From an uncultured Hymenobacter sp. (GTDB lineage Bacteria > Bacteroidota > Bacteroidia > Cytophagales > Hymenobacteraceae), in contig NZ_CAXTEF010000008.1 in the NCBI RefSeq assembly GCF_964243305.1, forward strand, positions 7,269 to 71,268: a DNA stretch of 64,000 nt. The letters are read 5' to 3'. Position numbers and translations under genes: made by a program. Positions 4,165 to 63,832 of this stretch are shown here, in pieces (within the stretch, counting starts at the first letter, position 1; every line of letters starts with the position of its first letter). The notes beneath the pieces were generated by a model. The model saw only the letters and a program-made list of their open reading frames with translations, searched no databases and was not told the origin of the DNA.

Positions 4165-4343
4165 TGGCAGGTGGGAATTTAAGGAAGCCGCAGCACGCCA
4201 GCGTATTCTTTGGCCGGCGTCGCGAATCTGCTGCGAACCTAACGCCCGGCGCGGCTTTCTGTTTGGCGGCGGGCCCCGAACCAGCCGGCTTCCTACATTT
4301 ACTTTTCTCTTTCCCGGCGCCCACTATTCCCTACCCCCCTGCT

Positions 4344-5333
4344 ATGCGCGAAGCCCTTTTCCTGCGCCAAAACCAGGACCGCTGGCGCGGCTACGAAGCC
4401 CGGCCCGCCGCCGGCCCTGCCGGGTCGGACCCCGACGAGCTGGCCGCCCGCTTCGTGGCCCTGACTGACGACCTGGCCTACGCCCAGACGTTCTACCCCG
4501 CCTCGCCCACCACGGCCTACCTCAACACCCTGACCGGGCAGCTGCACCAGCGCCTTTATAAAAACAAAGCCGAGGGCCGCGGCCGGCTGCGGCAGTTCTG
4601 GGGCACCGAGCTGCCGCTGGTCGTGGCCCGCAACCGCCGGCCGCTGCTGCTGGCCGCGCTCGTGTTCGGGCTCTTCGCCCTGATTGGCGCCTTGTCGGCG
4701 GCCTACGACGACTCGTTTGTGCGCGTCGTGCTCGGCGACGAGTACGTGAACCGAACGCTGGAAAACATCCACCGCGGCGACCCGATGGCCATCTACAAGA
4801 GCGAGAACGAGACGCCCATGTTCCTGTTTATCACCTTCAACAACGTGCGCGTGGCCCTGCTCACCTTCGCCAGCGGCATCACGGCTGGCGCGGGCACGCT
4901 CTACCTGCTCTTCACCAACGGCGTGATGCTGGGCGCGTTCCAGTATTTTTTCTACCAGCAGCACGTGCTCCAGGCCTCGCTGCTCAGCATCTGGATTCAC
5001 GGCACGCTGGAAATCTCGGCTATTATTCTGGCCGGCGGCGCGGGCCTGGTCATGGCGCGGGGCCTGCTCTTTCCGGGCACCTTCAGCCGGGCCGAAGCCT
5101 TTCGCCACTCGGCCCGCGAGGGGTTGAAGCTGGCCGTCGGGCTGGTGCCGATTTTCATCGTCGCCGGCTTCCTGGAAGGCTTCGTGACGCGCCACACCGA
5201 AATGCCGGTGGCCGCCAGCCTGGCTATCATTGGCTCCTCGGCGGCGTTTATGGGCTGGTACTTTGGCCTTTATCCGGGCCAGGTGCAGCGCCGGCTGGCC
5301 CAGGCCGCCGCCCAGCCGCCGCCGGCCCCCTGA
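4344..5333 (+). CDS. Stage II sporulation protein M (SpoIIM/DUF95)-like membrane protein
   Basis: ATG at 4344 (MREALFLRQNQDRW) is preferred to the track start. Motifs DDLAYAQTFYP, NNVRVA, NGVMLG, IHGTLEISA and GFLEGFVT. Confidence 0.88.
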   Translation: MREALFLRQNQDRWRGYEARPAAGPAGSDPDELAARFVALTDDLAYAQTFYPASPTTAYLNTLTGQLHQRLYKNKAEGRGRLRQFWGTELPLVVARNRRPLLLAALVFGLFALIGALSAAYDDSFVRVVLGDEYVNRTLENIHRGDPMAIYKSENETPMFLFITFNNVRVALLTFASGITAGAGTLYLLFTNGVMLGAFQYFFYQQHVLQASLLSIWIHGTLEISAIILAGGAGLVMARGLLFPGTFSRAEAFRHSAREGLKLAVGLVPIFIVAGFLEGFVTRHTEMPVAASLAIIGSSAAFMGWYFGLYPGQVQRRLAQAAAQPPPAP

Positions 5334-5381
5334 TTTTAGTTATGCTTATCCTATCCTCTTATTCTCTACCCCCCCTCGCGC

Positions 5382-6362
5382 ATGGCAATACTCTTTACCC
5401 AGGAAGCCGACTTTCGCCAGGAGCGCGAGTTCGGCCAGAAAATTAGCGCCGCGTTCGACTTCATTCGGGTGCACTGGCGGCCATTGGGCCGGGTGCTGCT
5501 CTACACGGTGCTGCCCGCCGCTCTGCTCACCGGCGTGCTGAACTCGACGCTGCAGCTCACAATGTGGAGCAAGCTCACGGCGCCGGCCACGGCCGGCCTC
5601 CGCGGCGCCCAGGCCCAGCTGGCCCAGCTAAGCGAGCTGACCGGCTCGCCCCTCTACTGGCTTAATCTGCTGCTGACCATCGCCTTTTTCAGCCTGCTGG
5701 TGCTCAGCGTTTACGGCTACGTGCTCGGCTGCCTGCGCGGCGCGGCCAGCCGCCTGGCCAGCCCGGACGGCGCCGACTCCCTACCCCCCGCCGCTGGCGT
5801 AAGCGTGGCCGAGGTGTGGCGGGTTATCCGGCGCGAGTTTGTGAGCACCTATTTCTCCATTTTCGGCATTTATTTTCTGATTGGGGTAGGCTTCTTTTTT
5901 CTGGTGCTGCCGGGCCTGTACCTCAGCATCATGCTGAGCCTGTTTTTCATTGTTAAGCTGGTTGAGGGCACCGGTTTTCGGGATACCGTCGGCCGGTGCC
6001 GGCAGCTGATTCGGGGCAAGTGGTGGTCTACGTTCGGGCTTATTTTCGTGATGGGCCTGCTGGTTTGGGGCTTGTTCATTCTGGTGGGCATCGTCTCGAC
6101 ACTGCTCGGGGGCGGGGCCGCCGTGCTGCTCCGCGGCAATGCCTGGCAGTCGCCGGTGTTCGTCATCGTCGCCAACACACTCAGCACCGGGCTGGCGCTG
6201 CTCTTCTACCCGCCGCTGCTGCTGGTGCTGGCTTTTCAGTATTTTAATCTGGTCGAGCGGCAGGAGGGCGTAGGTCTGCGCGGCCTCGTGGGGCAGTTGG
6301 GCCAGGTCGGCCCCACGGCCCGCAACGCCAGCTACCGGGCCAGCGAGGAGGGCGAATATTAA
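5382..6362 (+). CDS. Multi-pass membrane protein of the RDD/SpoIIM/MoxR cluster (GDPD-membrane-domain-like)
   Basis: RQEREFGQKISAAFDFIR, several TM helices, GKWWSTFG, and YFNLVERQEGVGL at the C-terminus; positioned within the cluster. Confidence 0.75.
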   Translation: MAILFTQEADFRQEREFGQKISAAFDFIRVHWRPLGRVLLYTVLPAALLTGVLNSTLQLTMWSKLTAPATAGLRGAQAQLAQLSELTGSPLYWLNLLLTIAFFSLLVLSVYGYVLGCLRGAASRLASPDGADSLPPAAGVSVAEVWRVIRREFVSTYFSIFGIYFLIGVGFFFLVLPGLYLSIMLSLFFIVKLVEGTGFRDTVGRCRQLIRGKWWSTFGLIFVMGLLVWGLFILVGIVSTLLGGGAAVLLRGNAWQSPVFVIVANTLSTGLALLFYPPLLLVLAFQYFNLVERQEGVGLRGLVGQLGQVGPTARNASYRASEEGEY

Positions 6363-6449
6363 GTTCTGCCAACAGGGCCTGGGCCGCCAGCAGGGGGGTA
6401 GGGAGCAGCTTTTTTAAAACGATACCAGGTAACATTTAACAAGTTTGCG

Positions 6450-7298
6450 GTGAGGCCAGCGGCAGCAGCATTTTCCAGCCGGGGGGCCCGCCCTTCCCAG
6501 CCCTCCCGGCGCGGGCCGCACCAGCTGGCGGGCGCGCTGGCTTTCCTCGGCCTGACCCTGAGCCTGGCCTTGGCCCCACCAGCCGCGGCCGGACCGGGCC
6601 CTACCCCCCCTGATTCGGCCCAGGCCACCGCCGCGCTGGGGCGGCGCCCGCTGCCGCCCGACCTGACCGCGCCGCTGCCCCCGCGCCCGGCTGATGCGGC
6701 CCGCCTGCGCGAGCTGCGCCAGCAGCGCGAGTTCACCTACGTCGAGGCCGCCCCGGAAGCGGCGAGCGCCTGGGACTTGTTCTGGCGGCGCGTGGGGCAG
6801 GCTTTGCGGCGCTGGCTGGCCAGCCGCAGCTACGAGGGCTTCTGGCGCTGGGTGTTCTACGCCCTGTTCCTGGGCGCGGCGGTGTTCATCGTGCTCAAGC
6901 TGCTGCAAGTCGATGTGACGGGTGCCTTCGGCCGCTCGGCCCGTCCGGTGCCGCTGGGCTACGATACGCTCGCGGAGAACATCCACGAGGTTGACTTTCA
7001 GGCCCGCTTGGCCGAAGCTGAGGCCGTCGGCAATCACCGCCTGGCCCTGCGCCTGGGCTACTTGCAGCTGCTCAAGCGCCTGGCCGACCACGGCCTGATT
7101 GCCTGGCAGCCCGACAAAACCAACCACGCCTACCTGGCCGAGCTGCCCGCCGCCGGCCCCCTGCGCCCCGCCTTCGGCGAGCTGACCCGGCAGTTCGAGT
7201 ACGTCTGGTACGGCGAGCTGCCGCTGCCCGCCAGCCTCTACGCCGAGGCTCGCGCCGGGCAGCAGGCGCTGAGCCGGGAGCTGGGGGAAGCAGGATGA
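6450..7298 (+). CDS. DUF4129 domain membrane protein
   Basis: Signal-like N-terminus and one TM. C-terminal ALRLGYLQLLKRL..WQPDKTNHAY..FEYVWYG pattern. Confidence 0.85.
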   Translation: MRPAAAAFSSRGARPSQPSRRGPHQLAGALAFLGLTLSLALAPPAAAGPGPTPPDSAQATAALGRRPLPPDLTAPLPPRPADAARLRELRQQREFTYVEAAPEAASAWDLFWRRVGQALRRWLASRSYEGFWRWVFYALFLGAAVFIVLKLLQVDVTGAFGRSARPVPLGYDTLAENIHEVDFQARLAEAEAVGNHRLALRLGYLQLLKRLADHGLIAWQPDKTNHAYLAELPAAGPLRPAFGELTRQFEYVWYGELPLPASLYAEARAGQQALSRELGEAG

Positions 7299-7497: not shown

Positions 7498-9012
7498 ATG
7501 ACCTCGCTCCGCTGGTACCTGCTCGGCCTGCTGGCCTTATTCGGCGCCTTTGTGGCGCTGGAATACTACCGGCCCCGGCCGCTGGACTGGCGCCCCACCT
7601 ACCTGAGCAAGGAGAAGATTCCCTACGGCACCTTCGTGCTTTATGACCAACTGCCGCGCCTGCTCGGCACCGACTCGGTGCAAATCGTGCGCGTGGCGGC
7701 CTTCAACCAGCTCACCGGCATTGCCGCCGACCCGGAGGAGTTTGAGGACGTGGAGGAGCTGGTTGAGCCCGCTACCGACACGGCGCAGGCCGCCGACAGC
7801 GCCAGCCGGCGGACGGGATCCCCGCCGGCCCCCGCAGCGGCCGACAGCGCCGCCGACATAGTGCAACCCGAAACTGACGCAGCGCCCGCAACTGATTCAG
7901 CAGTTGAAACCGGCGAGAAAGCAACCAGCGGCGAGCTAGCCACTGAGCAAAGCAAGGAAGCCGACGCCCCTACCGACACCACGCGCCCGGCAGCGCGGGA
8001 TGAAATTCCGTTGCGCCCGGCCCGCGCCAACTACCTGTTCATCGCCGAGGACATCCGCCTGGCGCCCTCCGACACGCGGGCACTGCTGCGCTACGCCGCC
8101 CAGGGCCACGACGTGTTCATCGGCGCCGAGGACTTCGGTGGCACCCGCCCCGGCTCGCTGGCCGACTCGCTCGGCTTCGAGAGCCGCGCCCTGGACTTGG
8201 GCGTGCCCCGGCTGAAAGCGGGCGCTGCCCCTACCCCCCCCGATTCGGTGAGCCTGCGCTTCACCAACGCCGGGCTGCGCGGCCCAACCTACCGCCTGCC
8301 GGGCGAGGGCGGCGCGTATCGGCTGAGCGTGGCGGCCGGCCGCCGCGGCGCCACGCTGGCCGCCGACGCGCAGGGCCGGGCCGTCTTTATTCGATTAGAT
8401 TACGGAAAGGGCCATTTCTACCTGTGCTCGGTGCCGCTGGCCTTCACCAACTACTTCGTGCTGCGGCCCCAAACCACGGGCCTCGCCACCGGGATGCTCT
8501 CCTACCTGCCGCCGCGCCCGGCCTGGTGGGACGAATATGAGAAAACGGGGCCCGTCGGCGAGCAGTCCTTGCTGCGGGTGCTGCTGGCCCACGACGCCCT
8601 GCGCATGGCCTTCTATCTGAGTTTGCTCGGCGGGCTGCTGTTTGTGCTGATTGAGGCCCGGCGCCGGCAGCGCATCATTCCCACGCTCAAGCCCTTGCCC
8701 AACACTACGCTGCTGTTTACGCGCACTGTGGCCGGCCTCTACCAGCAGGGCCGCAGCCACGCCCTGATTGCCGAGAAAAAAGTCAGTCTGTTTCGGGACT
8801 ACCTGCGCACCCATTTCCAGGAGCCTACCCCCGACTTCGGCGACGAAGCTTTTCGTGAGCGGCTGGCCCACAAAGCCGGCCTGCCCCGCGCCCGCGTCGA
8901 TGAGCTGCTGCGCCTCGTCAACTTTGCCCGCACCGCCCCCCAGGTCACTGACCGCGAGCTGCTCCGGCTCAGCCGCGCGCTGAATGACTTTCGGCGCGAG
9001 GCCAAGCGGTAA
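7498..9012 (+). CDS. DUF4350 domain protein
   Basis: N-terminal TM, W.PTY...KIPYGT motif, C-terminal TM followed by RRRQRIIP..PN.TL.F.RTVAGLY. Contains an acidic low-complexity insert. Confidence 0.82.
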   Translation: MTSLRWYLLGLLALFGAFVALEYYRPRPLDWRPTYLSKEKIPYGTFVLYDQLPRLLGTDSVQIVRVAAFNQLTGIAADPEEFEDVEELVEPATDTAQAADSASRRTGSPPAPAAADSAADIVQPETDAAPATDSAVETGEKATSGELATEQSKEADAPTDTTRPAARDEIPLRPARANYLFIAEDIRLAPSDTRALLRYAAQGHDVFIGAEDFGGTRPGSLADSLGFESRALDLGVPRLKAGAAPTPPDSVSLRFTNAGLRGPTYRLPGEGGAYRLSVAAGRRGATLAADAQGRAVFIRLDYGKGHFYLCSVPLAFTNYFVLRPQTTGLATGMLSYLPPRPAWWDEYEKTGPVGEQSLLRVLLAHDALRMAFYLSLLGGLLFVLIEARRRQRIIPTLKPLPNTTLLFTRTVAGLYQQGRSHALIAEKKVSLFRDYLRTHFQEPTPDFGDEAFRERLAHKAGLPRARVDELLRLVNFARTAPQVTDRELLRLSRALNDFRREAKR

Positions 9013-9235: not shown

Positions 9236-10375
<1,140 letters not shown>

Positions 10376-11993: not shown

Positions 11994-14029
11994 TTTGTTT
12001 GCTTCTCATATCGCTGAGCGCCGCCGCCCAGCCCGCTTCCCCGCTGCTGCCCATCCCCGCCCAAACCCAGTTCGGCCGCGCCGCCCTACCCCTCAAAGGC
12101 CCCTTGAAGCTGGTGCTGGAAACAACCCTGGACCCGCGCGTGGCCGCCAGCGCCCGCCAAGTCATCAAGGTGCTGCCCAACGGCACGGCGAAAGCCGCCG
12201 GCCTACCCCTGCAAATTCGCTACGGCCGCGTGGGGCAGGCCGAAAAGCAGGACGAGGAAAAATACAGCCTGCGCATCACGCCGCTGGGCGTCAGCATCTC
12301 GGCGCCGACCAGCCTGGGCGTGCTGCGGGCGCTGGCCACGCTGCGCCAGCTGCCCCGGCGCGCAGGTCGCGGCTGGGAGTTGCCCGAAGTAGATATCGAT
12401 GACCAGCCGCGCTTTGCCTGGCGCGGCCTCTCCCTCGACGTGGCCCGCCATTTTTTGCCCGTGGCCGTGGTCAAGCGCAACCTCGACGGCATGGCGGCCG
12501 TGAAGCTCAACGTGCTGCACTGGCACCTGTGCGACGACCAGGGCTGGCGCGTGGAAAGCCGGCTGCTGCCGCGCTTGCAGGGGGTAGGCGCCGCCACGGG
12601 CGGCTACTACACCCAGGCCCAGGTGCGCGAGGTGCTGGCTTACGCCGCCGCCCGCGGCATCCGCGTGGTGCCCGAGTTCGACTTGCCCGGCCACGCCGGC
12701 GCCATCATCGCCGCCTACCCCCGCCTGGCCTCGAACCCCGACTCCAGCACCGCCGTGCCCACGCGCTGGGGCGTGCTCAACATCGCCATCGACCCAACCA
12801 GGGAAACCACTTATACCCTGCTCGACTCGCTGCTGACGGAGATGACCGGCCTGTTTCCGGACCCGTATTTTCACATCGGCGGCGATGAAAACGACGGCCG
12901 GCAGTGGCGCCGCAACCCGCGCATCGTGGCGTTTATGCTGGAAAAAGGCTTCGTGAAAGCCAATGGCCAGCCCGACAAGCACCAGTTGCAAACCTACTTC
13001 AACCGCCGGATGCTGGCTTTGCTGCAACGGCAAGGCAAAACGATGGTCGGCTGGGATGAGATTCTGGGTCCCGACCTGCCGGCGCCGGTCGTAATCGAGA
13101 GCTGGCGCGGCCCCAAGGGCTTGCTGGAAGCCGCGCGCCTGGGCCACCCCGCTCTGCGCGCCCACGGCTACTACGTTGACCTTTACCAAACCGCCGCTGC
13201 CCACTACGCCGCCGACCCGCAGCAGGGCGTGCCCGACTCGCTGGCCCGCCGCGTGCTAGGCGGCGAGGCGGCCATGTGGCTGGAGTTTGCCGACTCCGTA
13301 ATCGTGGATTCGCGCATCTGGCCCCGCGCCGCCGCCGTGGCCGAGCGGCTGTGGTCACCGGCCGCCCTCAGCCAGGATGTGCCCGATATGTACCGCCGCC
13401 TGGCTTTGGTCAGCGAGCAGTTGGACAGGCTGGGCCTGCGCCACCGCCGCGCCCCGGCCCGCCTGCTGAAAGACATTGCCGGGCCCAGCGCCAGCGCCGC
13501 CGAGCAGGCCGCGCTGCGCAATCTGGCCGGCGTAGTAGAGCCGGTGAAGGAATATCAGCGGCACTTTCAGGGCTTTAAATACTCAACCGAAACTTCGCTC
13601 AACCGTCTCGTGGACGCCGCCCCGGCCGAGTCGGAAGTGGCGCGCCGCTTCGCCGCCACCGTGGACAGCCTGCTGGGGCCGGCACCGGCCCTGAGTCCCA
13701 CCACGAATTCCCTACCCCCCCCTACCACGCGCAAGCACTATTTGGCTACGCTGCGCGCCCAACTAACCACGTGGCAGCAAACCGACTCGCAGCTGGCGCC
13801 GCTGCTGGCCCGGCAGCCCCTACTACGCGAATATGCACCCCTATCGGCCAGTCTTAGCGCGATTGCCACGTTACTACTGCAACGCCTGAAGCAGCTGGAA
13901 AGCAGCGAGCCAACCCAGGCAGGCCCCGGCGCGCCCGCCCGCCTGCTGCTGCCCGCCGCCGTGGCCAAGCCCGCCGGGCAGGCCACGCTGGCGCCCGCCC
14001 TGCTGCGGGCCGCGGGCCGGCTGCTGTAG
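11987..14029 (+). CDS. Glycoside hydrolase family 20 beta-N-acetylhexosaminidase
   Basis: PRFAWRGLSLDVARHF, LNVLHWHL.DDQGWR, PEFDLPGH, catalytic HIGGDE and LGGEAAMW. GTG at 11987 gives a signal peptide (MKFCLLLISLSAAAQ). Confidence 0.95.
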   Translation: MKFCLLLISLSAAAQPASPLLPIPAQTQFGRAALPLKGPLKLVLETTLDPRVAASARQVIKVLPNGTAKAAGLPLQIRYGRVGQAEKQDEEKYSLRITPLGVSISAPTSLGVLRALATLRQLPRRAGRGWELPEVDIDDQPRFAWRGLSLDVARHFLPVAVVKRNLDGMAAVKLNVLHWHLCDDQGWRVESRLLPRLQGVGAATGGYYTQAQVREVLAYAAARGIRVVPEFDLPGHAGAIIAAYPRLASNPDSSTAVPTRWGVLNIAIDPTRETTYTLLDSLLTEMTGLFPDPYFHIGGDENDGRQWRRNPRIVAFMLEKGFVKANGQPDKHQLQTYFNRRMLALLQRQGKTMVGWDEILGPDLPAPVVIESWRGPKGLLEAARLGHPALRAHGYYVDLYQTAAAHYAADPQQGVPDSLARRVLGGEAAMWLEFADSVIVDSRIWPRAAAVAERLWSPAALSQDVPDMYRRLALVSEQLDRLGLRHRRAPARLLKDIAGPSASAAEQAALRNLAGVVEPVKEYQRHFQGFKYSTETSLNRLVDAAPAESEVARRFAATVDSLLGPAPALSPTTNSLPPPTTRKHYLATLRAQLTTWQQTDSQLAPLLARQPLLREYAPLSASLSAIATLLLQRLKQLESSEPTQAGPGAPARLLLPAAVAKPAGQATLAPALLRAAGRLL

Positions 14030-15044: not shown

Positions 15045-15432
15045 TACCAACGTCGTCATCCAGCATATTTGGCGCAGCCAACCCATGCCGGAAGAGGTTG
15101 TGCTGTCGATGGTCGTCGTGGGCGAGTTGGAAGCTTTCGCGCTGAAAGCCGATTGGGGCTACCAGAAGGTTGATTTCATGCAAAGTCTGTTTGCTTATCA
15201 CCCAATGCTAGAAATCTCGCGCGTTTTCACGCTCCCCTACGCGCGCATCGACGCCTACAGCCAGGGCAAGCTGCGGTCCCTACCCCTGCCCGCCGGCCTT
15301 TCGGCTCGCAACATGAGCAAAAACGACCTTTGGATTGCCGCCACGGCACTTTACTTTGATGTCGAGCTGCACACCGCCGACCACGACTTCGACCATTTGA
15401 CGGCGCTGGGCCTGCGCGTGGTGAAGGGCTAA
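15022..15432 (+). CDS. vapC: PIN-domain (VapC-like) ribonuclease toxin, first catalytic Asp replaced by Asn
   Basis: PIN pattern VLF(N)TNVVI..VVVGELEA..KNDLWIAATAL..LHTADHDF. Confidence 0.85.
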   Translation: MPQPVLFNTNVVIQHIWRSQPMPEEVVLSMVVVGELEAFALKADWGYQKVDFMQSLFAYHPMLEISRVFTLPYARIDAYSQGKLRSLPLPAGLSARNMSKNDLWIAATALYFDVELHTADHDFDHLTALGLRVVKG

Positions 15433-18400
15433 AACAGCACCGCGACCTGCATCCGGCCGGTGTGAACGGTGCGCAGGCCGCTGGCCTTGCGGCCGTCATA
15501 GGCCACATTGATATTGAGGCCGTTGCTCAGGCGCTGCTCCAGGTTCAGGTTCCAGGTGAAGTTGGAGCCGGGGCGCAGGGCGTTCAGGATTTCGATGCCT
15601 GCCACCGTGGCCGGGTCGCCCTGGAAGCCGACGCGGGTGCCGCGCACATTGGCCGTGATGGTGCGCTTATTTACTTGGCTGAGGCGGGTTTCGAGGCCTA
15701 GCTCATCGAAAGTGCCCTGGGCCAACTGTTCATTGGGCTGGGTCAGATTAGGCAGGCTGTTGCGCTTGCTTTGGCGCAGGTAGGTGCCGGTCAGGCGCAG
15801 GGCGGGGGTAGGCTGGTAGCTGATTTCGGGCTGCACATCATACAAGAGCAGACGGAAGTTGCGCTGGCTGAGGTAGGTGCTGGCGGCCTCGCGCACGTTG
15901 CGCGCCACGAGCAGCCGGCCCGTGAACGACTGCGCCAGCGTGCGCCGCACGAGCAGGCTCTGGCTCAGAATATTGCGCAGGTCGAAGCCCTGGGCCAGCA
16001 GGGTTTTGAGCTTGGTTTGCTGCACGGTGAACTCGGCGCCGAAGATGGGATTCGAGCGGTTGTAGTACAGGGTGTTGCGCAGGAGGCGGTTGGCACCCAG
16101 GGTCTGCTCGCCGTTGGTGGGCGAGCCGAAGGGATTAAGGCGGGCGCCGAGACCGGGGTCGGTGGTGCGGCGGTCGAGCGTGACGCTGCTAATGCTGGAG
16201 AAGCGGGCCGCCGCGGCGCGCCAGCCGCCGGCCTCGCGCCAGGGGCGCGGGGCGTTGGCCGTGAGGCGGTAGCTGAGCCGGTTGGTGAAGGCCGTGATGT
16301 AATCTTGGGTCGGCAAAAACACCTTAATAAAGGTGCGGTACTGCGCGTCGGGCGTCTGGGCCTCGAAGAACTCCTCTTTCTGCTGAATGCCATCACTGTT
16401 CAAATCGCCAGCGTAGAAGTGGGTGCCCTGGCCGGCGGGTACGGCCACGAACGAGAAGTCGCGCTTTAATTCCCTACCCGTGCCGATGCTGTAGCTCAGC
16501 TCCGAGCGCACCTGGCCTTGCAGCAGGCCGGCGTTGTAGTCGATTTTGCCGAGCACCGTCCGGCGGCGGGCGCTGTCGGCGCTGGCCGCCCGCAAGTCGC
16601 GGTAGGTGGCCAGCACCCGCAAATCCTGGGTTTTACCGATTCTCGTGGCCAGACTGCCCTGCCAGGTTTGGGCCTGGGCGCGGCGCGCGATGGCAGTGCG
16701 CTCCTCATTCGGGGCCTGGTCCTGGCGGCGGCTGTAGTCGAGGCGATAATTCAGCCGGGCCGAGTCGCGGCTCATCACGAACACGTTGTGCTCGTCGAAG
16801 TAGTTGGCCGAGGTCAGCTCGCGGCCGTCGGGCAGGGCGACGCGGTTTTTGTCGAAGCGGTAGGCGTAGCCCGGCACCACGGCCCCGCGCACGAAGCGCG
16901 CCGTGGCTTCGCCCCGCGCCCAGGCGCTGCGGCGGCTGCCCGCGTCGGCGCCGAGCACAAACAAGGAGCCGCGCAGCTCCACGTCGCCCAGCTTCTGAGC
17001 CACATCCAGCCAGTGCTGCAAGCCGCGCACCTCGCCGGCCCGGTAGCGGCGGCTGACGCGGTAGCTGATAGCGTTGTTCGGGTCGCGCAGCAGGCCCAGG
17101 CTGAAGTTGAAGATGTTGTCCTCGCGCGGCGTCTGGCCGGTGCTGGTGCCAGCCACGGTGTTCTGGGCGCTCCAGTTGCGGTCAAACTCTACGTCGCGGT
17201 AGCGGTCGATGGGCGTGAAACCGGCGGCGGTATACTCGTAGTCGAGCGTCGAATACAGGCGGTAGTCGCGCAGATAATTCTCTAGAATCGGCAGGCCCGC
17301 CAGGCTCCGGCCCCGCACCGCGTAGCCCAGGCGCATGGCCGCGCCCTGGTCGGCAGCGGGCGAAAAGCGGTTGCGCTCCAGCCGCGAGCGGGCCAAATCC
17401 ACGAACACCGTGGCCGTGCTGTCCAGCTCGTAAGAGGCGCCCGCCGTCACTTGCTGCTTGCGCAGGGGGGTAGGGAGCAGGCGCACCGGCGCGTAGCGGC
17501 CCTGCCCGGCGCCGGCATACTCAAACACCCGGCCGTTGGCGTTCAGCTCCGTCGAACTCAGCCGATAATCACCTTGGCCCTGAGTTACTTCCGTGAAGCG
17601 CACCTGATACACGCCGCCGAGCGTATCGGCGCCCACGGCGCGGCGGAAGCGGCCCGTGGCGGGGTCGCGGCGGTACAGCACCTGGGTGCGGTCGTAGGCC
17701 ACGGAGTCGGCGCCGGGCGTCAGGGCTACGGCCACGTTGCCGGCCTGGCGCAGGCGCTCGCGGTCTTCGGGGTTAAGATTTAAGTTGGGAGCGTTGTCGG
17801 GATTGTCGGCTTCTTGGTAGAAATTGCCGTGCAGGCGCAGCTTGCCCACTTGCTGGTAGTGGCTCAGCGCCACGAGCGAGCGGGCGTAGTTGAGGTCGGA
17901 ATACTCAAACTCGACCCGCAAACGGGAGTTGCGGGTGATGAGGTGGCGGGGCGAAAACGTGACTTCGGCCAGGTTGTAGTCAATTACATAATCGTAATCA
18001 AAGCCCCGGACTTGCAGGCGCCCATCCAGGTACACGCGCTCCGAGTTGGCCAGCACAATGATGAACTGCTCGCCGTTAGGCCCGCGCAGGCGGTAAGGGC
18101 CCTGCACGTTCTCGATGGGCGCGATGTCGAGCGAGGCAAACTTGCCCTTGGCCACGCCGCCCGCCACAGTCGTGGACGAGCGGATTTCGCGGCCCCGCCC
18201 GTCGCGGCCGGCAGTAGTTACGGCCGCGCTCTGCCCGTCGCTCAAACCCGCATTCTGCCCGTTGCCGACACCGTTGCTCGCGCCGTTATTTAATCCATTG
18301 ATTAACCCTGGATTCGGAATCCCTACCCCCCCGCCCGGCGCCGAGCCGCCCAGCGCCGGCCCACTGCCGGGTACGCTACCCGGCCCGTTGCTGCTGCCGA

Positions 18401-19405: not shown

Positions 19406-19780
19406 CTACCCGGCCGCCAACGCCGGCCGGTCTGCGCCCACTCGCCCCAGGTGCGTGTCCTTGAAGCCAGTGCCGTACTTGAGGCCGTAGCCCAAGAGCC
19501 GGTCGAAGGCGCTGTGAGAGAGCAGCACCGTGCCCGCCAGCAGCAGCGCGGGCTGGCCCAGCAGCCAGCTCCCTACCCCCACCGCCAGGCCCAGGGCCTT
19601 GTGGTGCACGAGATTGTAGCTAAAGGCGCCGGCTCGCGGCCCAGCCAGGTAGCCCACCATGCTCAGGTCGGGCAGCAGAAAGGCGGCGGGCAGCACCCAC
19701 CAGGCGTAGGGCAGGCGGGCGAACACGACCAGCGCCAGCAGCAGCTCGGCCAGTTCTTCAATTTTCAATAGCGTTTTCAT
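19406..19780 (-). CDS. DUF4260 domain membrane protein
   Basis: MKTLLKIEE, LPDLSMVGYLAGP..GA..YN..HH and H..FDRLLGYGLKY. Confidence 0.88.
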   Translation of the reverse strand: MKTLLKIEELAELLLALVVFARLPYAWWVLPAAFLLPDLSMVGYLAGPRAGAFSYNLVHHKALGLAVGVGSWLLGQPALLLAGTVLLSHSAFDRLLGYGLKYGTGFKDTHLGRVGADRPALAAG

Positions 19781-20511: not shown

Positions 20512-20570
20512 GGGCGAAGATACCCATCAGCCCGGCGCAAGTGAGCACTCGACCATTGCCCTACCCCCCT

Positions 20571-24404: not shown

Positions 24405-24555
24405 AGATGAGTGCGCAAAAGTCGTGCGAGTCGCCCGACAGCGACTTTCACTGGGCTAGCTGCTACTTAGCTGCCGACCCCATTAAAGACAAAAATGCCG
24501 CTCAGGAGCGGCATTTGGCAGAATGTCAGCCGGGTGGGCAAGCGGCGCACAATCC

Positions 24556-44212: not shown

Positions 44213-44303
44213 GTGAAGTTGCCCGGAGCCTGCCGAATCCCTACCCCCCTCCTGGCCTGCAAGGCAAACCGCTTATCTGCCGTTGGGCGTACTTTTACCG
44301 GTA

Positions 44304-46806: not shown

Positions 46807-46844
46807 TTCCCTACCCCCCTCGCACTGGCCGAAGGGGTAGGGAA
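46807..46844. other. Hairpin formed by two inverted CCCTACCCC motifs upstream of priA
   Basis: TTCCCTACCCC (46807-46817) and GGGGTAGGGAA (46834-46844). Confidence 0.75.
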
Positions 46845-49563: not shown

Positions 49564-50181
49564 CTATAAGCTATCAAGCAGATAGAGCACAATGACAGCT
49601 ACACCAACGATGCCGATAATGAGGCCTAATACTCCAATGAGTGTACCAAGTGTCCCGCCAATTGCTCCCGCTAGAATGCCAATCAAGATACCTATCAAGA
49701 GCAGAATCAGGCCCTGACGGAGCTTGCTATCCAGTCGCTGAGTGGAAGCAGTATTATCATGGCGGCCGGAAGCGGCTTTTTGGCTGGCCTTTTCCAATTT
49801 GCGGGTTATTTTCGCCACGGCCAGCCGCTGCACCGGATTGAGCTTGCGGGAGGGGGTAGGGGTCACAACTGTAGCTGGGTCGGCCACCGTGGTAGCAACC
49901 ACCGTAGCTGACGAGGCAGCCACAGCTTGGGCAGTGGCTGGCGCCAGTACGGATTCAGCCTGGGGCGTAGCGGGGGAGGTAGGCGTGACCACCGGAGTCG
50001 CGACGGGGGCAGCAACTATTTCGCGCTCAACGGGAACCGGCGTGCGCACACGAGCCACGCCGTGGTACGGCGACGAGGTTTTGGGCAGCACGGCGTACTC
50101 GGCGCGATTGCAGCTACCCAGCGTCAGGGCGCAGGCCATCACGGCCAGCAGCTTGGAAAAAGAAGCAGACAGGTGTTTCAT
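49564..50181 (-). CDS. Hypothetical lipoprotein with Pro/Thr/Ala linker and C-terminal hydrophobic hairpin
   Basis: Lipobox LGSC and two C-terminal hydrophobic helices. Confidence 0.75.
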   Translation of the reverse strand: MKHLSASFSKLLAVMACALTLGSCNRAEYAVLPKTSSPYHGVARVRTPVPVEREIVAAPVATPVVTPTSPATPQAESVLAPATAQAVAASSATVVATTVADPATVVTPTPSRKLNPVQRLAVAKITRKLEKASQKAASGRHDNTASTQRLDSKLRQGLILLLIGILIGILAGAIGGTLGTLIGVLGLIIGIVGVAVIVLYLLDSL

Positions 50182-50360: not shown

Positions 50361-51158
50361 ATGAAGTATCTGCTTTCCAGCTGTATGCTGACCGTAGGCG
50401 GGGCGCTGGCCCTGCTGGCTTGTACTCAGCTGCCCGCCGAAACCAATCCGGTGCAGCTCAGCGGGCAGGCGATGACCAGCCTTACTGCCCCTACCCCCCC
50501 CGCGGCCACTGACACCACCGGCTATCAGACCCGCCCGGCCCGCGACCCCAACGGCATTGGGCGCTACTACCTGGGCCGGCAAATTGCCCACGTCATGGGC
50601 CACGAGGGCGCCAGCTGGCTGGAGCGCAGCGACCGGCAGCAGGAAGAAGGCACCGACATCCTGCTGCGCGAGCTGAAGCTCAAGCCCACCGACGTGGTGG
50701 CGGATATCGGGGCGGGTACGGGCTTTTTCTCCTTCCGCATGGCCAAGCTGGTGCCGCGCGGGCAGGTGCTGGCCGTCGATATTCAGCCCGAGATGATTGC
50801 GGAATTAGAGCGAAACAAGCGGGCCAGCCAAGCTCCTAATGTGCGCCCCGTGCTGGGCACTACGTCTGACCCCAAACTACCGGCTGGCAGCGTCGATTTG
50901 GCGCTCATCGTCGATGCGTACCATGAGTTTGACCACCCGCGCGAGATGGGGCAGGCCATCCGGGCGGCGCTGCGGCCCGGCACCGGCCGGCTGGCTTTGG
51001 TCGAGTACCGCGCCGAAGACCCCAGCGTGCCCATCAAGCAGATTCACAAGATGAGCGTGGCCCAGGCCCGCAAGGAGATGGCCGCCGTGGGGCTGGAGTT
51101 TGTGGAGGTAATAGAAAGCCTGCCGCAGCAGCACCTGCTGATTTTCCGACGGAAGTGA
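50361..51158 (+). CDS. Class I SAM-dependent methyltransferase with predicted lipoprotein signal
   Basis: VVADIGAGTGFF, LAVDIQPEM and VDAYHEF. N-terminus MKYLL..ALALLAC. Confidence 0.9.
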   Translation: MKYLLSSCMLTVGGALALLACTQLPAETNPVQLSGQAMTSLTAPTPPAATDTTGYQTRPARDPNGIGRYYLGRQIAHVMGHEGASWLERSDRQQEEGTDILLRELKLKPTDVVADIGAGTGFFSFRMAKLVPRGQVLAVDIQPEMIAELERNKRASQAPNVRPVLGTTSDPKLPAGSVDLALIVDAYHEFDHPREMGQAIRAALRPGTGRLALVEYRAEDPSVPIKQIHKMSVAQARKEMAAVGLEFVEVIESLPQQHLLIFRRK

Positions 51159-52549: not shown

Positions 52550-52676
52550 TGCGGGGCCGGGTAGCGGAACCACGTCAGTTTCCCTACCCCCGCCGCCGCC
52601 GCAACCCGCTGAGGGGCTTGTCGTATAAGGCGCCGTAGCTACTCATTTAATCGCTGCCGAAGCAGCCCTATCAACC

Positions 52677-53533: not shown

Positions 53534-53566
53534 GTCAGGGCCGGGGCCGACTTAGGTCCCTACCCC

Positions 53567-53867: not shown

Positions 53868-53936
53868 GGTGAGCGGGGGGGGGGGGGGGGGCCGAGACTG
53901 GCAGTCAGCCCCGGCCCCTACCCCCCCCCTCTCACC
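53868..53936. repeat. G17 homopolymer within an imperfect hairpin
   Basis: GGTGAG-C-G17 (53875-53891)...CCCCTA-C9-T-CTCACC. Confidence 0.7.
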
Positions 53937-54132
53937 TATACCGCAATCGTAACTTTCGCCGCTAAGGTTACGGCTGAGCTGGTTCAGGGCCGGGCGGCAA
54001 GCTGCGCCCGTAAGCGGCTAATGCACCAGCTGGCACCACCACGGCGACGCTTTAACTGCCCAACGCCCACCCGCCCGGCTCATCCGGGGCGCCCTTAATT
54101 CCCTACCCCCCTCCCTCTTCCCCAACGCACCC

Positions 54133-54795: not shown

Positions 54796-55707
54796 ATGAC
54801 ACTGGCTTTTTTAGGATTCATTTTAGTGCTGCTGGGCCTCAATGCGGCCCGGCTCTCGCCGGGCCTGGAGCGCCTGCGCGGGCTGCTCACGCTCGGCGGG
54901 TTGGGCCTGCTGATTGCGGGGCTGGCCCTGAGCACCGTGGTACAGATTGGCGTCGGCCAGGTGGGGGTGCAAACCTTGTTTGGCAAGGTCGAAGACCGGG
55001 TTTTGCCGCCGGGGCTGAGCGTCGTTAATCCGCTGGTTGACGTGACCCGCTTCGACACCCGCACCCAGAACTACACCATGTCGGCCACGCACACCGAGGG
55101 TCAGCAGGCCGGCGACGATGCCATCCGGGTGCTCTCGGCCGACGGCCTGGAAGTGGTGATTGACCTGACCGTGCTTTACCACGTCGTGCCGCAGCAGGCG
55201 CCCAAAATCCTCTCCACCATCGGCGAGGATTACCAGGAGAAAATCGTGCGCGCCATCTCCCGCACCCGTATCCGCGACAACGCCGTTTATTACGACGCCG
55301 TGGCCTTGTATTCCAGCCGCCGCGACGAGTTCCAAACCCGCATCCTCAACGCCATCGAGAAGGATTTTCAAGCCAGCGGCCTAAAGCTCGACCAGCTGCT
55401 GATTCGTAACATCCAGCTCCCGCAGTCGGTGAAGACCAGCATCGAGAGCAAGATTTCGGCCGAGCAGGATGCGCAGAAGATGCAGTTTGTGCTGCAAAAG
55501 GAAAAGCAGGAAGCCGAGCGCAAGCGCGTCGAGGCCCAAGGCATCGCCGACTATCAGCGCATCGTCAACACCGAGTTGAGCGACAAGCTGCTGCAATACG
55601 AAACCATCAAGGCCAACCAGGCCATCGCCACCTCGCCCAACGCCAAGGTCATCATCATGGGCGGCGGCCGGGGCCCCGTGCCGCAGCTGCTGCTGGCGGA
55701 TAAGTAG
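54796..55707 (+). CDS. SPFH/prohibitin (band 7) family protein
   Basis: N-terminal TMs, LSADGLEVVIDLTVLY, RTRIRD, KISAEQDAQKM..EAERKRVEAQGIA. Confidence 0.93.
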   Translation: MTLAFLGFILVLLGLNAARLSPGLERLRGLLTLGGLGLLIAGLALSTVVQIGVGQVGVQTLFGKVEDRVLPPGLSVVNPLVDVTRFDTRTQNYTMSATHTEGQQAGDDAIRVLSADGLEVVIDLTVLYHVVPQQAPKILSTIGEDYQEKIVRAISRTRIRDNAVYYDAVALYSSRRDEFQTRILNAIEKDFQASGLKLDQLLIRNIQLPQSVKTSIESKISAEQDAQKMQFVLQKEKQEAERKRVEAQGIADYQRIVNTELSDKLLQYETIKANQAIATSPNAKVIIMGGGRGPVPQLLLADK

Positions 55708-55730
55708 GGGGGTAGGGAATAGTTTAATGT

Positions 55731-60613: not shown

Positions 60614-61786
60614 ATGAGTGCTATCCAGTATCTAACTACCGCTGCCGACGTGGCGCAGGCGGCTACCCATTTTGCCACTTGCCTGCGTATTGGCATCGAC
60701 CTGGAGTTTGACGATAACCGCTACCGCTACGGCCGCCACCTGGCTCTTATTCAGGTGTTTGACGGCGAAACGGTATATCTGATTGACCCCCTACCCCTGC
60801 CCGACATGGCCCGCGACCTCGAGCCCCTGTTCGCGGTGCTGCGCTCGCCCGACGTAGCCAAGGTGTTCCACTCTTGCAAGTCGGATATTCTGTTGCTCGA
60901 CGAGCTGTTTGGCGTCACCTGCCGTCACATCGTCGATACCAGCGTGCAGTTTACCTTGCTCACGGCCGAGGACAACAACATCTCACTGGGCCGCCTCATT
61001 CAGCAGGAGCTGGGCCTGACTGTGGACAAGGGCGAGCAGAAGTCAAACTGGCTCAAGCGCCCGCTCACAGAGGCCCAGAAAGAGTACGCCGCCAACGACG
61101 TAGTGTACCTGTTCCAGCTCACCGACCTGCTCGCGTCCCGGCTTCGGGAGCAGGGCCGCGCCGAATGGGCCGCCCAGGAAAACGAGGCGCTGGAAGCCGT
61201 GCGCTACGGCCGCGACGAAACCCGTCCCTGGGGCCGGCTGGCCGGCAAGTTCCGCATCGCGCCGGCCGAGCTGCCCTTGTTTCGGGAGCTGTACCTGCTG
61301 CGCGACGCCGTGGCCCGGCAACTCGACCGCCCCAGCTACATGGTGATGAGCAACGACCGCCTGGCCGAGTTGGCCCGCGAGCCCATCCAGACTGCCGCCG
61401 AGCTGCGCCAGGCCGCCGGCCTGCACCCCGACCTCAAACGCAGCCCCTACGCTGAGCAGCTCGTGGCCTTGGGCACCGCCGACCTGGCCGCCGAAGCTGC
61501 GGTGCCCGCCGAGCAGCGCCGCTTCCCGCTGCGCCGCCGCCTCAGCGGGTCGCAGACCGCCAAAGCCGATGCGCGCGAAAACCTGCTCAATCAACTCAAA
61601 ACTCACCTCACGCAGGACGAAGGGCCGCTGCTGGCCAACCTCGTGCTCAGCAACCGCCTCATTGGCGACATCATCGAGCAGGGCGCCGATGCCACGCTGC
61701 GGCCCTGGCAGCAGGAGCTGCTGCGCGACGCCGCCGAGCGGCACGGGCTCCAGTACGAGAGCGTGGCCGCGCCCTTTGCCATCTGA
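60614..61786 (+). CDS. rnd: Ribonuclease D-like 3'-5' exonuclease with HRDC domain
   Basis: GIDLEFD, KVFH.CKSD, EQKSNWLKRPLT..Q..YAANDV and an HRDC-type segment (RDAVARQLDRP..VMSNDRL). Confidence 0.88.
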   Translation: MSAIQYLTTAADVAQAATHFATCLRIGIDLEFDDNRYRYGRHLALIQVFDGETVYLIDPLPLPDMARDLEPLFAVLRSPDVAKVFHSCKSDILLLDELFGVTCRHIVDTSVQFTLLTAEDNNISLGRLIQQELGLTVDKGEQKSNWLKRPLTEAQKEYAANDVVYLFQLTDLLASRLREQGRAEWAAQENEALEAVRYGRDETRPWGRLAGKFRIAPAELPLFRELYLLRDAVARQLDRPSYMVMSNDRLAELAREPIQTAAELRQAAGLHPDLKRSPYAEQLVALGTADLAAEAAVPAEQRRFPLRRRLSGSQTAKADARENLLNQLKTHLTQDEGPLLANLVLSNRLIGDIIEQGADATLRPWQQELLRDAAERHGLQYESVAAPFAI

Positions 61787-61800: not shown

Positions 61801-62826
61801 ATGCGCCGCTGGCTTCTGCCACTCCTTTTCCTGCTGAGTGCCGGCACCTACGGCACCTGGCGCCTGCTCTACCGGCCGGCCCCTACCCCCTCGCCCGACG
61901 GCGATGCCTACCTCTACATCCGCACCGGGGCGCCGTTTCGGGCGGTGCTGGATTCGCTGAATGGGCCGGCGTTGCTGCGCGACTCAGTTGGGTTTCGCTG
62001 GCTGGCCGAGTGGCGCGGCTATCCGGGGCGCATCCGCGCCGGGCGCTACCGCCTGAGCCCGGAGCTGGGCAACCTGGCGTTGCTGCGCCGGCTGGAAAAT
62101 GGCGAACAAGACACCATCGAGCTGGCAGTAAAGCCGTTTCATTACCTGCCCGCTCTGCCTCGCCGAGTGGCGCCGCATTTGGAAATCGACTCCGTGCAGC
62201 TGCAAAAGCTGCTGGCCGACAACGCCGGCCTGCGGGCGCGCTACGGCCTCGATACGGCCACGGTGCGCACGCTCTTTATTCCGGGCACCTATGACCTGGT
62301 GTGGAATACGAGCCCGCGGGCCCTGCTCGACACGTTTGCGGCGCGGCACCGCCGGTTCTGGACGCCGCAGCGGCGGGCGCGGGCCGACTCGCTGAAAATG
62401 AGCCCGGTGCAGGTTAGTATTCTAGCCAGCATCGTGCAGCGCGAAACGGCGCAGCCCACCGACAAGCCTCTGATTGCCGCCGTTTACTTGAACCGCCTGC
62501 GGCGGGGCCAGCCCCTGCAGGCCGACCCGACCTTGCTCTGGCCCCAGCACGCGCTGGGCACCCGTCGCCGGGTGCTCAATCTGGATAAGAAAGTCGATTC
62601 GCCCTACAACACTTACCGCCACAAGGGCCTGCCGCCGGGCCCCATCACCACGCCCCTGCCTGGCTCGCTCGATGCGGTGCTGCAGCCCGCCCGCAACCAG
62701 AACCTGTTTTTCTGCGCCCGCCCCGACGGCAGCGGGTTTTCCGACTTCGCCGAAACCTACGCCCAGCACCGCCGCAACGCCCGCCGCTACCAGCACCGCC
62801 TCGACAGCCTGGGGGTGAGGCGGTAG
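61801..62826 (+). CDS. mltG: Endolytic transglycosylase MltG
   Basis: N-terminal TM, ASIVQRET, VYLNRL, LQADPT, SPYNTY...GLPPGPI and FAETY..H. Confidence 0.94.
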   Translation: MRRWLLPLLFLLSAGTYGTWRLLYRPAPTPSPDGDAYLYIRTGAPFRAVLDSLNGPALLRDSVGFRWLAEWRGYPGRIRAGRYRLSPELGNLALLRRLENGEQDTIELAVKPFHYLPALPRRVAPHLEIDSVQLQKLLADNAGLRARYGLDTATVRTLFIPGTYDLVWNTSPRALLDTFAARHRRFWTPQRRARADSLKMSPVQVSILASIVQRETAQPTDKPLIAAVYLNRLRRGQPLQADPTLLWPQHALGTRRRVLNLDKKVDSPYNTYRHKGLPPGPITTPLPGSLDAVLQPARNQNLFFCARPDGSGFSDFAETYAQHRRNARRYQHRLDSLGVRR

Positions 62827-62849
62827 CTTCTGGCTTTGCCGGACGAGCG

Positions 62850-63010
62850 GGGGGTAGGGAATCGAGAATTAAAAGAAGGTCAGGCTGAGCGCAGCGAAGC
62901 ATCTTGCCAGGAAAAGTAATCTAATCGTTGTTAATTATTGATTAGCCAGCGGGCAAGATGCTTCGCTGCACTCAGCCTGACCTTCTTTTAATTCTCGATT
63001 CCCTACCCCC
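62850..63010. repeat. Long palindromic element, copy 5, capped by GGGGGTAGGG/CCCTACCCCC
   Basis: 59-bp arms at 62850-62908 and 62952-63010 with one mismatch. Confidence 0.93.
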
Positions 63011-63022
63011 TACCCTAAACCA

Positions 63023-63469
63023 ATGCGCCTTGTCATTCAGCGCGTCCAGGCCGCGTCTGTCGTCATCGAAGGTCAGCTTACCGGGCAGATTGGCCCCGGC
63101 CTGTTGGTGCTGGCCGGCTTCGCCCCCACCGACGCGCCCGCGGCCCTAGTTTGGATGGCCCGCAAGCTCACGCAGCTGCGCATTTTCCCCGACCAAGCCG
63201 GCCAGATGAACCGCAGCGTACTCGACACCGGCGGGCAGGTGCTCGTCGTCAGTCAGTTTACGCTCCTGGCCGATGCGCGCAATGGCAACCGCCCCAGCTA
63301 CGCCGGAGCGGCGCCGCCGGCCGTGGCCGCGCCGCTGTACCAGCAGTTTGTGGCCCTGGTGGCCGAGCTGCTGGGCCAGCCCGTGCCCACGGGCATCTTC
63401 GGCGCCGACATGCAGGTGAGTTTGGTGAACGACGGCCCGGTAACCATCGTGCTGGATTCGCCGGCCTGA
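63023..63469 (+). CDS. dtd: D-aminoacyl-tRNA deacylase
   Basis: [36 protein letters not shown]. Confidence 0.96.
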
Positions 63470-63505
63470 GTTAGCGTAAATTGCTGGCTTCAATGTAACC
63501 TCGCT

Positions 63506-63832
63506 ATGACCCTCGAACAAGCCCAGGCCACTGTGGATGAGTGGATAACCACCACCGGCGTCCGCTACTTCAATGAGCTGACGAATATGGCCATTCTGAC
63601 CGAGGAAGTGGGCGAGGTGGCCCGCCTCATCGCCCGGCAGTATGGCGAGCAGTCGTTTAAGGAATCGGACAGGGGTAGGGAATTGGGCGATGAGCTGGCC
63701 GACGTGCTGTTCGTGGTCATCTGTTTGGCGAATCAGACGGGTGTTGATTTGACCGAAGCGCTGCGCCGCAACCTGGAAAAGAAGACCCGGCGCGACAGCC
63801 AGCGCCACCAGAACAATGAGAAGCTGAAGTAG
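63506..63832 (+). CDS. MazG-like nucleotide pyrophosphohydrolase
   Basis: ILTEEVGEVAR, ELADVLFV..CLANQTG and KKT.RD..RH. Confidence 0.9.
   Translation: MTLEQAQATVDEWITTTGVRYFNELTNMAILTEEVGEVARLIARQYGEQSFKESDRGRELGDELADVLFVVICLANQTGVDLTEALRRNLEKKTRRDSQRHQNNEKLK

Follow-up and report, generated by a model that had tools for sequence, protein, structure and literature searches.

The genome of an uncultured Hymenobacter species is written through with a hyperabundant, asymmetric DNA word, G(5-6)TAGGG(A)(A/T) and its complement. We followed it up from a stretch of 64,000 nucleotides (nt), here called the window (assembly GCF_964243305.1, contig NZ_CAXTEF010000008.1, positions 7,269 to 71,268; C8:7269-71268 in our contig numbering). 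The word itself is undescribed; its counterparts are the HIP1 word of cyanobacteria and the DNA-uptake sequences. In the literature we found no description of it or of any such word in Hymenobacter, nor any report of competence or uptake sequences in this genus. On balance, we favour reading it as a HIP1-type genomic word, that is, a duplex sequence recognised by a putative sequence-specific protein of the lineage.

The assembly of this genome (G000) comprises 4.61 Mb in 79 contigs with a GC content of 62.4%. Its SusC/SusD genes and its named relatives agree with an assignment to Hymenobacter (Bacteroidota, Cytophagales). In the following, C-form denotes CCCTACCCC and G-form its complement GGGGTAGGG. 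The window contains exactly 37 exact copies of the two, 29 with CCCTACCCC on the plus strand and 8 with it on the minus strand, whereas dinucleotide-preserving shuffles of the window gave a mean of 0.76 and a maximum of 4. The original prediction, made from the letters of the window, had given a minimum of 37 copies, and the coordinates it listed are all correct, its G-forms starting 2 nt earlier as they were counted from the start of the longer G-run. Genome-wide, 3,126 copies were counted (1,596 and 1,530 on the two strands), and G(5-6)TAGGG reaches a density of about 1 per kb. The genome-wide word count that the original prediction had proposed placed GGGGTAGG, with 4,594 copies, at the top of all 8-mers of the genome, and the rankings of 9-, 10- and 11-mers are likewise headed by words derived from the motif.

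The word is sharply bounded. Its consensus is (A/G)G5-6-TAGGG-A-A/T, in which the length of the G-run follows a bell-shaped distribution with a peak at 5-6, sharper between genes than in coding sequences (CDSs). Most long G/C homopolymers of the genome are motif copies. While GGGGGTAGGGA itself occurs 1,808 times, each single substitution in its core occurs only 0-31 times, and single-mismatch variants are overall about 100 times rarer than the word. Control words of the type GGGGxyGGG were found 20-341 times each. Around the copies no conserved flank was detected past about 13 nt, and a 14-mer with an AAT flank was not common to the word-rich congener G018. Spacing is Poisson-like (mean 978 bp for the 8-mer, coefficient of variation 0.99). 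The widest gap measures 11.6 kb, and the densest cluster packs 9 copies into 1.5 kb. Inspection of motif-free islands and motif clusters of this genome for a driver locus revealed nothing telling. The motif is also seen in short tandem arrays with a 17-nt period (CCCCCCACGTTCCCTAC...) and a 7-nt period (GGGGTAG repeated), located at G000:C2:123912-123946 and C2:8162-8176. Within the window, the 12.7 kb from 30000 to 42700 have a GC content of 49-56%, no exact 9-mer copy and one 8-mer copy only; this region encodes a respiratory-type operon including a 4Fe-4S dicluster protein of 1,012 amino acids.

To relate the copies to genes we used our own crude codon-usage caller, which returned 3,528 open reading frames (ORFs) at 81% coverage and yields approximate distances to start and stop codons. 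As a sanity check, the frame in which TAG would act as a stop contained 0 G-form copies. Inside ORFs, which harbour about half of the copies, all permitted reading frames and both strands are used; the density is 0.44 per kb inside genes and 1.60 per kb between them (3.7 times higher). On the sense strand of CDSs, 1,130 C-form and 497 G-form copies were observed, compared to 33 and 1.2 expected from a codon-frequency model. This enrichment of 30- to 400-fold, with the G-form at about 400-fold, lies far above the expectation of the model and is thus no artefact of codon usage. The original prediction had proposed a real, lineage-specific signal that acts on DNA rather than on protein, and had named a codon-aware null as the test for it. 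The enrichment survives this test, and the use of all permitted frames, both strands and the spacers between genes agrees with a DNA-level signal. Its peptide readings are borne out as well, the CDS copies of the window reading SLPP, APTP, GVG and RGRE.

Under these gene calls the copies cluster at gene boundaries. The 20 nt in front of predicted start codons contain 319 C-form and 21 G-form copies, after stop codons roughly half of the copies are in the G orientation, and convergent and divergent spacers carry copies at equal density. The TAG of the motif itself is the stop codon of 128 ORFs (82 by a stricter count). A minority of copies form inverted pairs, i.e., hairpins, some of which cap the outer ends of longer palindromes, such as 46809/46834 and 62851/63009 in the window. 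With regard to stop codons in general, TAG is the commonest in this genome (1,480, followed by TAA with 1,204 and TGA with 811), which is unusual at 62% GC, although these numbers come from the crude gene calls; the motif accounts for only 82-128 of these TAG stops.

Genome-wide, the orientation of the word depends above all on gene direction. The C-form lies on the sense strand in 70% of the CDS copies of this genome and, more weakly, in 62% of the copies in tandem spacers. Across this genome and the word-rich congener G108 the share is 70-77%, with gene-strand coefficients of -0.88 and -1.20, respectively. For the window, our gene calls gave 19 CDS copies with the C-form on the plus strand, 12 of them in plus-strand and 7 in minus-strand genes, versus 2 with the G-form on plus. 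The claim that the C-form on the plus strand dominates in CDSs by 19:3 whichever way the gene points hence holds for the window (19:2) but not genome-wide, where the C-form follows the sense strand at 70:30.

A bias toward the sense strand might indicate an element that works in RNA. In mRNA leaders, the C-rich form (CCCUACCCCCC, no more than about 20 nt from start codons) would then be bound by an RNA-binding protein or be a signal related to Rho or to translation. The ratio of 319 to 21 upstream of predicted starts and the sense-strand share of 70-77% are what such an element would leave behind. However, about 30% of CDS copies and about half of those after stop codons are in the G orientation, the G-form exceeds the codon model about 400-fold, and the equal density in convergent and divergent spacers does not fit a leader element. 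Predicted starts are moreover approximate, and a period-3 pattern suggests that many of the 'upstream' copies are in frame inside an ORF. We consider an RNA-level role very improbable.

Comparison with relatives points toward the way in which copies come about. In a related contig from a metagenome-assembled genome (MAG), with 96% identity in the PriA protein and 88% in DNA, the 8-mer has 0 copies in 5.4 kb. At the copy in priA, G000 reads TTG CCC CTA CCC CTG where the relative reads CTG CCC CTG CCG CTG, and at a second site of the same comparison CCC ACG has become CCT ACC in G000. Likewise, in a codon alignment of the GH20 gene from 29 species, GCC CTA CCC CCC stands opposite GCC CTG CCA CCC, with unchanged amino acids and no indels. 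The changes that create the motif are often synonymous (CTG>CTA, CCG>CCC) and sometimes non-synonymous. As these codon comparisons in priA and GH20 show, copies arise by point substitution and not by insertion of an element.

This bears on the idea that the word is the footprint of a mobile element, namely the conserved, GTAG-containing head of a repetitive extragenic palindrome (REP) with its RAYT transposase, of a miniature inverted-repeat transposable element or of an Ssn-type hairpin repeat. The word does contain GTAG, the head of REP elements, and some intergenic copies sit at the outer ends of long inverted repeats with ATTCCC...GGGAAT arms, as described for the dRS3/NTS repeats of Neisseria (PMC11893778). 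Yet half of the copies lie inside ORFs, where base substitutions without indels contradict an insertion, no flank is conserved beyond about 13 nt, and inverted pairs are a small minority, most copies being single, free of hairpins and inside genes. In addition, a pattern search of this genome returned no small GIY-YIG (Ssn-like) ORF. A mobile-element origin is thus hard to uphold and, in our estimation, very unlikely.

Existing copies appear to be kept far better than neutral sequence. Six word-rich species have copies at the same orthologous codons in the GH20 alignment. Of 22 motif 8-mers, 9 were kept at about 72% DNA identity, compared to about 16% of other 8-mers, in a sample of few sites from one locus with non-independent pairs. 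Furthermore, words with a single mismatch remain at background despite 3,126 potential parents, which argues that existing copies are protected from decay or promptly restored.

The distribution of the word was surveyed by counting the 10-mer GGGGGTAGGG in genomes of 165 Hymenobacter species and in 12 genomes from other families of the order. It occurs 1,355-2,692 times in eight genomes (G000, G018, G088, G108, G110, G156, G165 and G166), about 100-560 times in eight further ones and near background in the remainder of the 165, while the genomes from other families contain 0-8 copies. This survey of relatives, suggested by the original prediction, makes the word lineage-specific, with about 8 of 165 Hymenobacter species rich in it. 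In a species tree built from a single gene (GH20), the word-rich genomes fall into one clade, which also holds the word-poor genome G150 and a trio of genomes, G042, G101 and G115. When 1.6 Mb of G108 and G018 were screened for proteins whose unusual similarity might betray recent horizontal transfer between word-rich lineages, only ribosomal and other conserved proteins were returned.

Other members of the genus use other words. Among 80 named 22-kb loci retrieved with PriA, hyperabundant words were ACCTAGGT in H. cavernae, AGCTAGCT in H. crusticola, a GGCCTAGGCC-like word in H. fodinae and H. wooponensis, CCCTAGGG in H. polaris, GGCTAGCC in H. ginsengisoli and others, and the shorter CCCTACCC in H. 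citatus (the PriA loci with such other words being L052, L053, L090, L095, L097, L100, L102, L104, L106 and L116). ACCTAGGT, AGCTAGCT, GCCCTAGGGC and GGCTAGCC are palindromic, and the words of other species are mostly palindromes with a CTAG core. Many congeners have no such word and avoid CTAG (0.2-0.8 per kb). In whole-genome counts, GCCCTAGGGC occurs 162-777 times in G085, G149, G042, G101 and G115 and at most 29 times elsewhere. The last three form the word-poor trio nested in the CCCCTACCCC-rich clade, and about 60-80 old copies linger in them. Being poor in CCCCTACCCC and rich in GCCCTAGGGC, this nested lineage has swapped CCCTA-CCCC for CCCTA-GGGC. The specificity of the reader evolves in such a dialect switch, and words that are no longer read decay. 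As most dialects are palindromic and the word is present on both strands, the reader is probably a protein that binds duplex DNA.

Dialects with a common core are also a hallmark of uptake sequences. The word could be a self tag of this kind, preferred by competent cells when they take up or recombine DNA and spread by molecular drive as the DNA uptake sequences (DUS) of Neisseriaceae (GCCGTCTGAA and its dialects) and the uptake signal sequences (USS) of Pasteurellaceae (AAGTGCGGT), through a machine other than a type IV pilus. With DUS and USS, themselves asymmetric words of 9-12 nt, it shares a density of about 1 per kb on both strands, copies written into codons by substitution, inverted pairs that form hairpins between genes, and lineage-specific dialects around a common core, here CTA; the rarity of single-mismatch variants would fit as well. 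Porphyromonas and Riemerella, two other Bacteroidota, are naturally competent without a type IV pilus. On the other hand, an ATPase of the T2SSE/PilB/PilT type (PF00437) was found in 0 of 29 Hymenobacter genomes, whereas the control search detected it in 13 of 14 reference genomes. ATPases of type IV pili and type II secretion thus seem to be missing from the genus, and with them the canonical DUS/USS route of uptake. Moreover, most words of the sister species are palindromic, unlike any known uptake sequence, the Hymenobacter word has a marked transcription-strand bias that sets it apart from DUS and USS, and, as stated above, we found no report of competence or uptake sequences in Hymenobacter. 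The DNA-uptake reading of the original prediction is weakened accordingly: density, occurrence on both strands, substitution and dialects agree with it, the missing pilus ATPase does not. We regard it as rather unlikely, albeit the foremost of the alternatives.

Beyond gene direction, orientation also depends on the position in the chromosome. Contig-level effects remain in G000 once gene direction is taken into account (likelihood-ratio test 205 on 77 degrees of freedom), and the contig of the window is among the most strongly skewed ones. This same contig carries dnaA (G000:C8:106650-107135), 35 kb past the right end of the window, so that the window is origin-proximal, in line with its strong local skew. 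The orientation skew that is independent of gene direction is thus partly a local feature of an origin-proximal contig. An excess of the C-form on the plus strand is seen across the whole 127 kb of this contig.

Raw GC skew was rejected as a proxy for replication. The sense strand of G000 genes is C-rich (GC skew -0.047, and -0.125 at third codon positions, GC3), so that raw GC skew follows gene direction. In the fragmented assembly of G000, gene-corrected GC3 skew and motif orientation were uncorrelated (r=0.07 in 60-kb windows). The replichore analysis was hence carried out on the word-rich congener G108 rather than on G000, using 60 windows of 20 kb along its 5.24-Mb chromosome. Its gene-corrected cumulative orientation curve peaks once, at about 0.7-0.85 Mb, and reaches its only minimum diametrically across the chromosome, at about 3.25 Mb. 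The gene-corrected GC3 skew has its own minimum and maximum at these two places, and dnaA was located at 0.876 Mb. A logistic model attributed 77:23 to the gene strand and 61:39 to the replichore (chi-square 37.6, p=9e-10), and the raw replichore bias is about 62%, or 62-65% for intergenic copies alone. With respect to polarity, the G3-rich leading strand preferentially carries CCCTACCCC and the lagging strand GGGGTAGGG, a sign opposite to that expected from base composition (gene-corrected GC3 skew). A check on strand balance in G018/G032 gave an orientation ratio of 101:57 over 400 kb. In G000, contig C2 shows a sharp orientation switch at about 105.2-108.4 kb, from 61% to 29% G-form on the plus strand (log-likelihood ratio 15.6). 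It coincides with a 2-kb gap and a low-GC kilobase (43-49%) between convergently oriented gene blocks and is a candidate replication landmark; no cluster of DnaA boxes was found at the switch, the best cluster of the genome being on C6 at about 178.4 kb.

An orientation that inverts at the origin and terminus is a feature of KOPS, the FtsK-orienting sequences, and of other architecture-imparting sequences that direct translocases to the terminus. The octamer GGGTAGGG fits the E. coli consensus GGGNAGGG, and the inversion predicted in the original note does exist, near dnaA and at the opposite pole. However, its polarity is reversed, since the G-form lies on the lagging strand and hence points away from the terminus, and the bias is weak (61:39 gene-corrected), while the co-orientation of KOPS exceeds about 80%. 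Among the variants of GGGNAGGG only the one with N=T is abundant, with 3,357 copies compared to a few hundred or fewer for each of the other three, and the word is about 10 times denser than KOPS. Finally, about 150 of the 165 congeneric species are without it, and other families of the order have 0-8 copies. Polarity, weak bias and patchy distribution together contradict the FtsK/KOPS reading that had been put forward, which is effectively excluded.

The same polarity would suit a preferred start site of the replicative primase for Okazaki fragments, with the CTA core of the C-form being used on the lagging-strand template. CTA is the initiation trinucleotide of some DnaG primases, the C-form is enriched on the leading-strand sequence, i.e., the lagging-strand template, and the spacing of about 1 kb resembles the length of Okazaki fragments. 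Nonetheless, a split of 61:39 places almost as many copies on the wrong strand as on the right one, DnaG is universal whereas the word is patchy within one genus, and the palindromic dialects point to a reader of duplex DNA. This leaves a primase site with very little probability.

The bias could also reflect a Chi-like site, a dense hotspot in two orientations that regulates an AddAB-type helicase-nuclease and limits DNA loss at two-ended breaks. Such a role would be conceivable in a genus tolerant to desiccation and radiation, and the specificity would shift as the recognition subunit changes. Similar to Chi (GCTGGTGG, and the shorter Chi sites of AddAB), the word is over-represented and asymmetric, which a signal read on single-stranded DNA should be, and it has a real leading/lagging bias that flips at origin and terminus. 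ORFs resembling AddB (about 1,000-1,090 amino acids) and AddA (about 1,200 amino acids) with PD-(D/E)XK domains were present in 18 of 18 genomes. They were found whatever the word content of the genome, in word-rich and word-free ones alike, and are therefore uninformative on the word. Several findings speak against a Chi-like role: known Chi sites stay one to two orders of magnitude below the 30- to 400-fold enrichment of this 11-13-mer, the strand bias does not go beyond 61:39 and has the C-rich form on the leading strand, copies are 3.7 times denser between genes, the distribution within the genus is patchy and the sister words are palindromic. We judge it to be unlikely.

We looked for the reader among the DNA methyltransferases of G000. 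One of these belongs to the MmeI family and another, a small N4/N6 enzyme, lies in a phage-like region; there are also two type III Mod-Res pairs and at least one C5-like motif. Two of them, the MmeI-like enzyme and one type III Mod, were profiled against the word. The MmeI-family gene is present in 103 of 165 species including word-free ones and absent from the word-rich genome G018, and the best homologue of the type III Mod resides in a word-free species; both were rejected. The MmeI-family (type IIL-like) ORF at G000:C14:94075-97047 ends in about 185 residues of Arg/Pro-rich nonsense, which suggests a frameshift or an over-extended ORF. The apparent type III restriction-modification pairs are located at G000:C15:38430-43254 (Mod of 631 amino acids with a 910-aa neighbour) and C18:45288-49754 (Mod of 615 amino acids with an 869-aa neighbour).

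Our preferred interpretation of a HIP1-type word rests on the resemblance to HIP1 (GCGATCGC) and the alternate HIPs of cyanobacteria. These are likewise hyperabundant by tens- to hundreds-fold (15-300-fold) at about one copy per kb, occur inside and between genes, spread by nucleotide substitution, and are absent from some lineages or replaced by a different word. Sites of HIP1 are conserved between species, and those of the Hymenobacter word appear to be. The conservation of HIP1 and the selection on it have been analysed (Xu, Lawrence and Durand 2018, PMC5861425). The Hymenobacter word differs from HIP1 in being non-palindromic and 11-13 nt long with a variable G-run, in its strong transcription-strand and weak replichore bias together with Poisson-like spacing, in having no identified cognate methyltransferase (two candidates profiled), in its phylum, Bacteroidota, and in its gain and loss within one genus, even between genomes 88% identical in DNA.

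Mechanistically, the reader would act on double-stranded DNA and symmetrically as to strand. An orphan DNA methyltransferase or a nicking/repair factor would be the most likely kind. Its site may be ratcheted upward by biased mismatch correction, i.e., modification- or nick-directed repair, as proposed for HIP1 (Elhai 2015, PMC4390886). Alternatively, selection for a dense binding or marking site may maintain it. Both orientation biases would then reflect costs and not function: the G-run would be kept off whichever strand becomes exposed as single strand, namely the non-template strand during transcription and the template of the lagging strand during replication. Costs that could come into play are the formation of R-loops or G-structures, TAG stops and rare codons.

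Several points weigh against this interpretation. Typical methyltransferase sites are shorter and less odd than this consensus, which spans 11-13 nt and includes a variable G-run, and the word is asymmetric, unlike the palindromic HIP1 and the words of the sister species. No reader protein was found among the candidates profiled, the distribution of both the MmeI-family enzyme and the type III Mod being at odds with that of the word. The treatment of the orientation biases as costs is something we infer, the conservation of 9 of 22 sites derives from a single locus, and the positions relative to start and stop codons depend on crude gene calls. Among the signal classes that had been considered for the word, a protein-binding or modification site nevertheless is the best one, in the manner of HIP1, even though no reader was identified.

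The individual copies of the window illustrate these features. Of the C-forms on the plus strand, those in plus-strand genes are found at 5779-5787 (reading SLPP), 6599-6607 (GPTP), 8229-8237 in a DUF4350 gene (APTP), 9367-9375 (IPTP), 15278-15286 (SLPL), 50489-50497 (APTP), 60789-60797 (PLPL) and 61881-61889 (APTP). The GH20 gene has two, at 12084-12092 (ALPL, with CTG CCG/CCC at the same place in relatives) and at 13710-13718 (SLPP, overlapped by a second, partial copy). The GSCFA gene has one at 45277-45285 (SLPP), and the copy in priA at 46980-46988 (PLPL) is two synonymous changes away from the CTG CCG of the 88%-identical relative. Minus-strand genes contain plus-strand C-forms at 18321-18329, 18456-18464, 19571-19579, 25499-25507, 28615-28623, 29056-29064 and 29982-29990, all of which read GVG, the G-form being on the sense strand as at 18321; the copy at 24554-24562 straddles the end of a minus-strand gene. 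A minus-strand C-form in a minus-strand gene, and thus on its sense strand, lies at 17467-17475 (LPTP), and one in a plus-strand gene with the G-form on the sense strand at 63672-63680 (RGRE).

Between genes, plus-strand copies occur at 4329-4337, ending 6 nt before the ATG at 4344, at 52582-52590, 53558-53566, 53916-53924 and 54101-54109, and, according to the crude gene calls, at 20559-20567 and 44239-44247. Minus-strand copies are located at 6395-6403 (G-form on plus), 42710-42718 and, again by the crude calls, 49853-49861, and a further one at 55709-55717 directly follows the stop codon TAA at 55705-55707. An inverted pair at 46809-46842 (46809 on plus, 46834 on minus) forms a hairpin between the GSCFA gene and priA, where the close relative has unrelated sequence. 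Motif copies form both outer ends of a long inverted repeat at 62851-63009, one being GGGGGTAGGGAATCGAGAATTAAAAGAAGGTCAGGCTGA at 62851 and the other its complement, which ends at 63009.

To our knowledge, hyperabundant words such as HIP1 have been without a mechanism for about 30 years, and uptake sequences are not known outside two proteobacterial families. Hymenobacter, which can be cultured, provides a natural experiment, in which about 8 of 165 species have roughly 2,000-3,000 copies, a relative 88% identical in DNA has none in 5.4 kb, and a nested lineage has swapped in a palindrome that shares the CCCTA half. Contrasts as sharp and recent as these make the reader gene findable, and polymorphism data could separate drive from selection. 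On a practical level, the word puts G5-8 homopolymers into genes by the thousand, where they invite frameshifts and sequencing errors, and it supplies TAG stop codons and dominates k-mer statistics, which affects the binning and annotation of Hymenobacter MAGs.

More tentatively, Hymenobacter, and perhaps Bacteroidota, may possess a pilus-independent, sequence-specific system that both writes and maintains a genomic word and whose specificity shifts between close species (CCCCTACCCC, GCCCTAGGGC and other CTAG-core palindromes), a possibility that we take seriously without holding it to be probable. If this is true, thousands of sites, codons included, would be rewritten within the divergence time of sister species, and the old word would decay after a change in specificity. 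The reader could then be a new strand-discrimination or repair mark, or a tag of self DNA that a recombination or defence nuclease reads.

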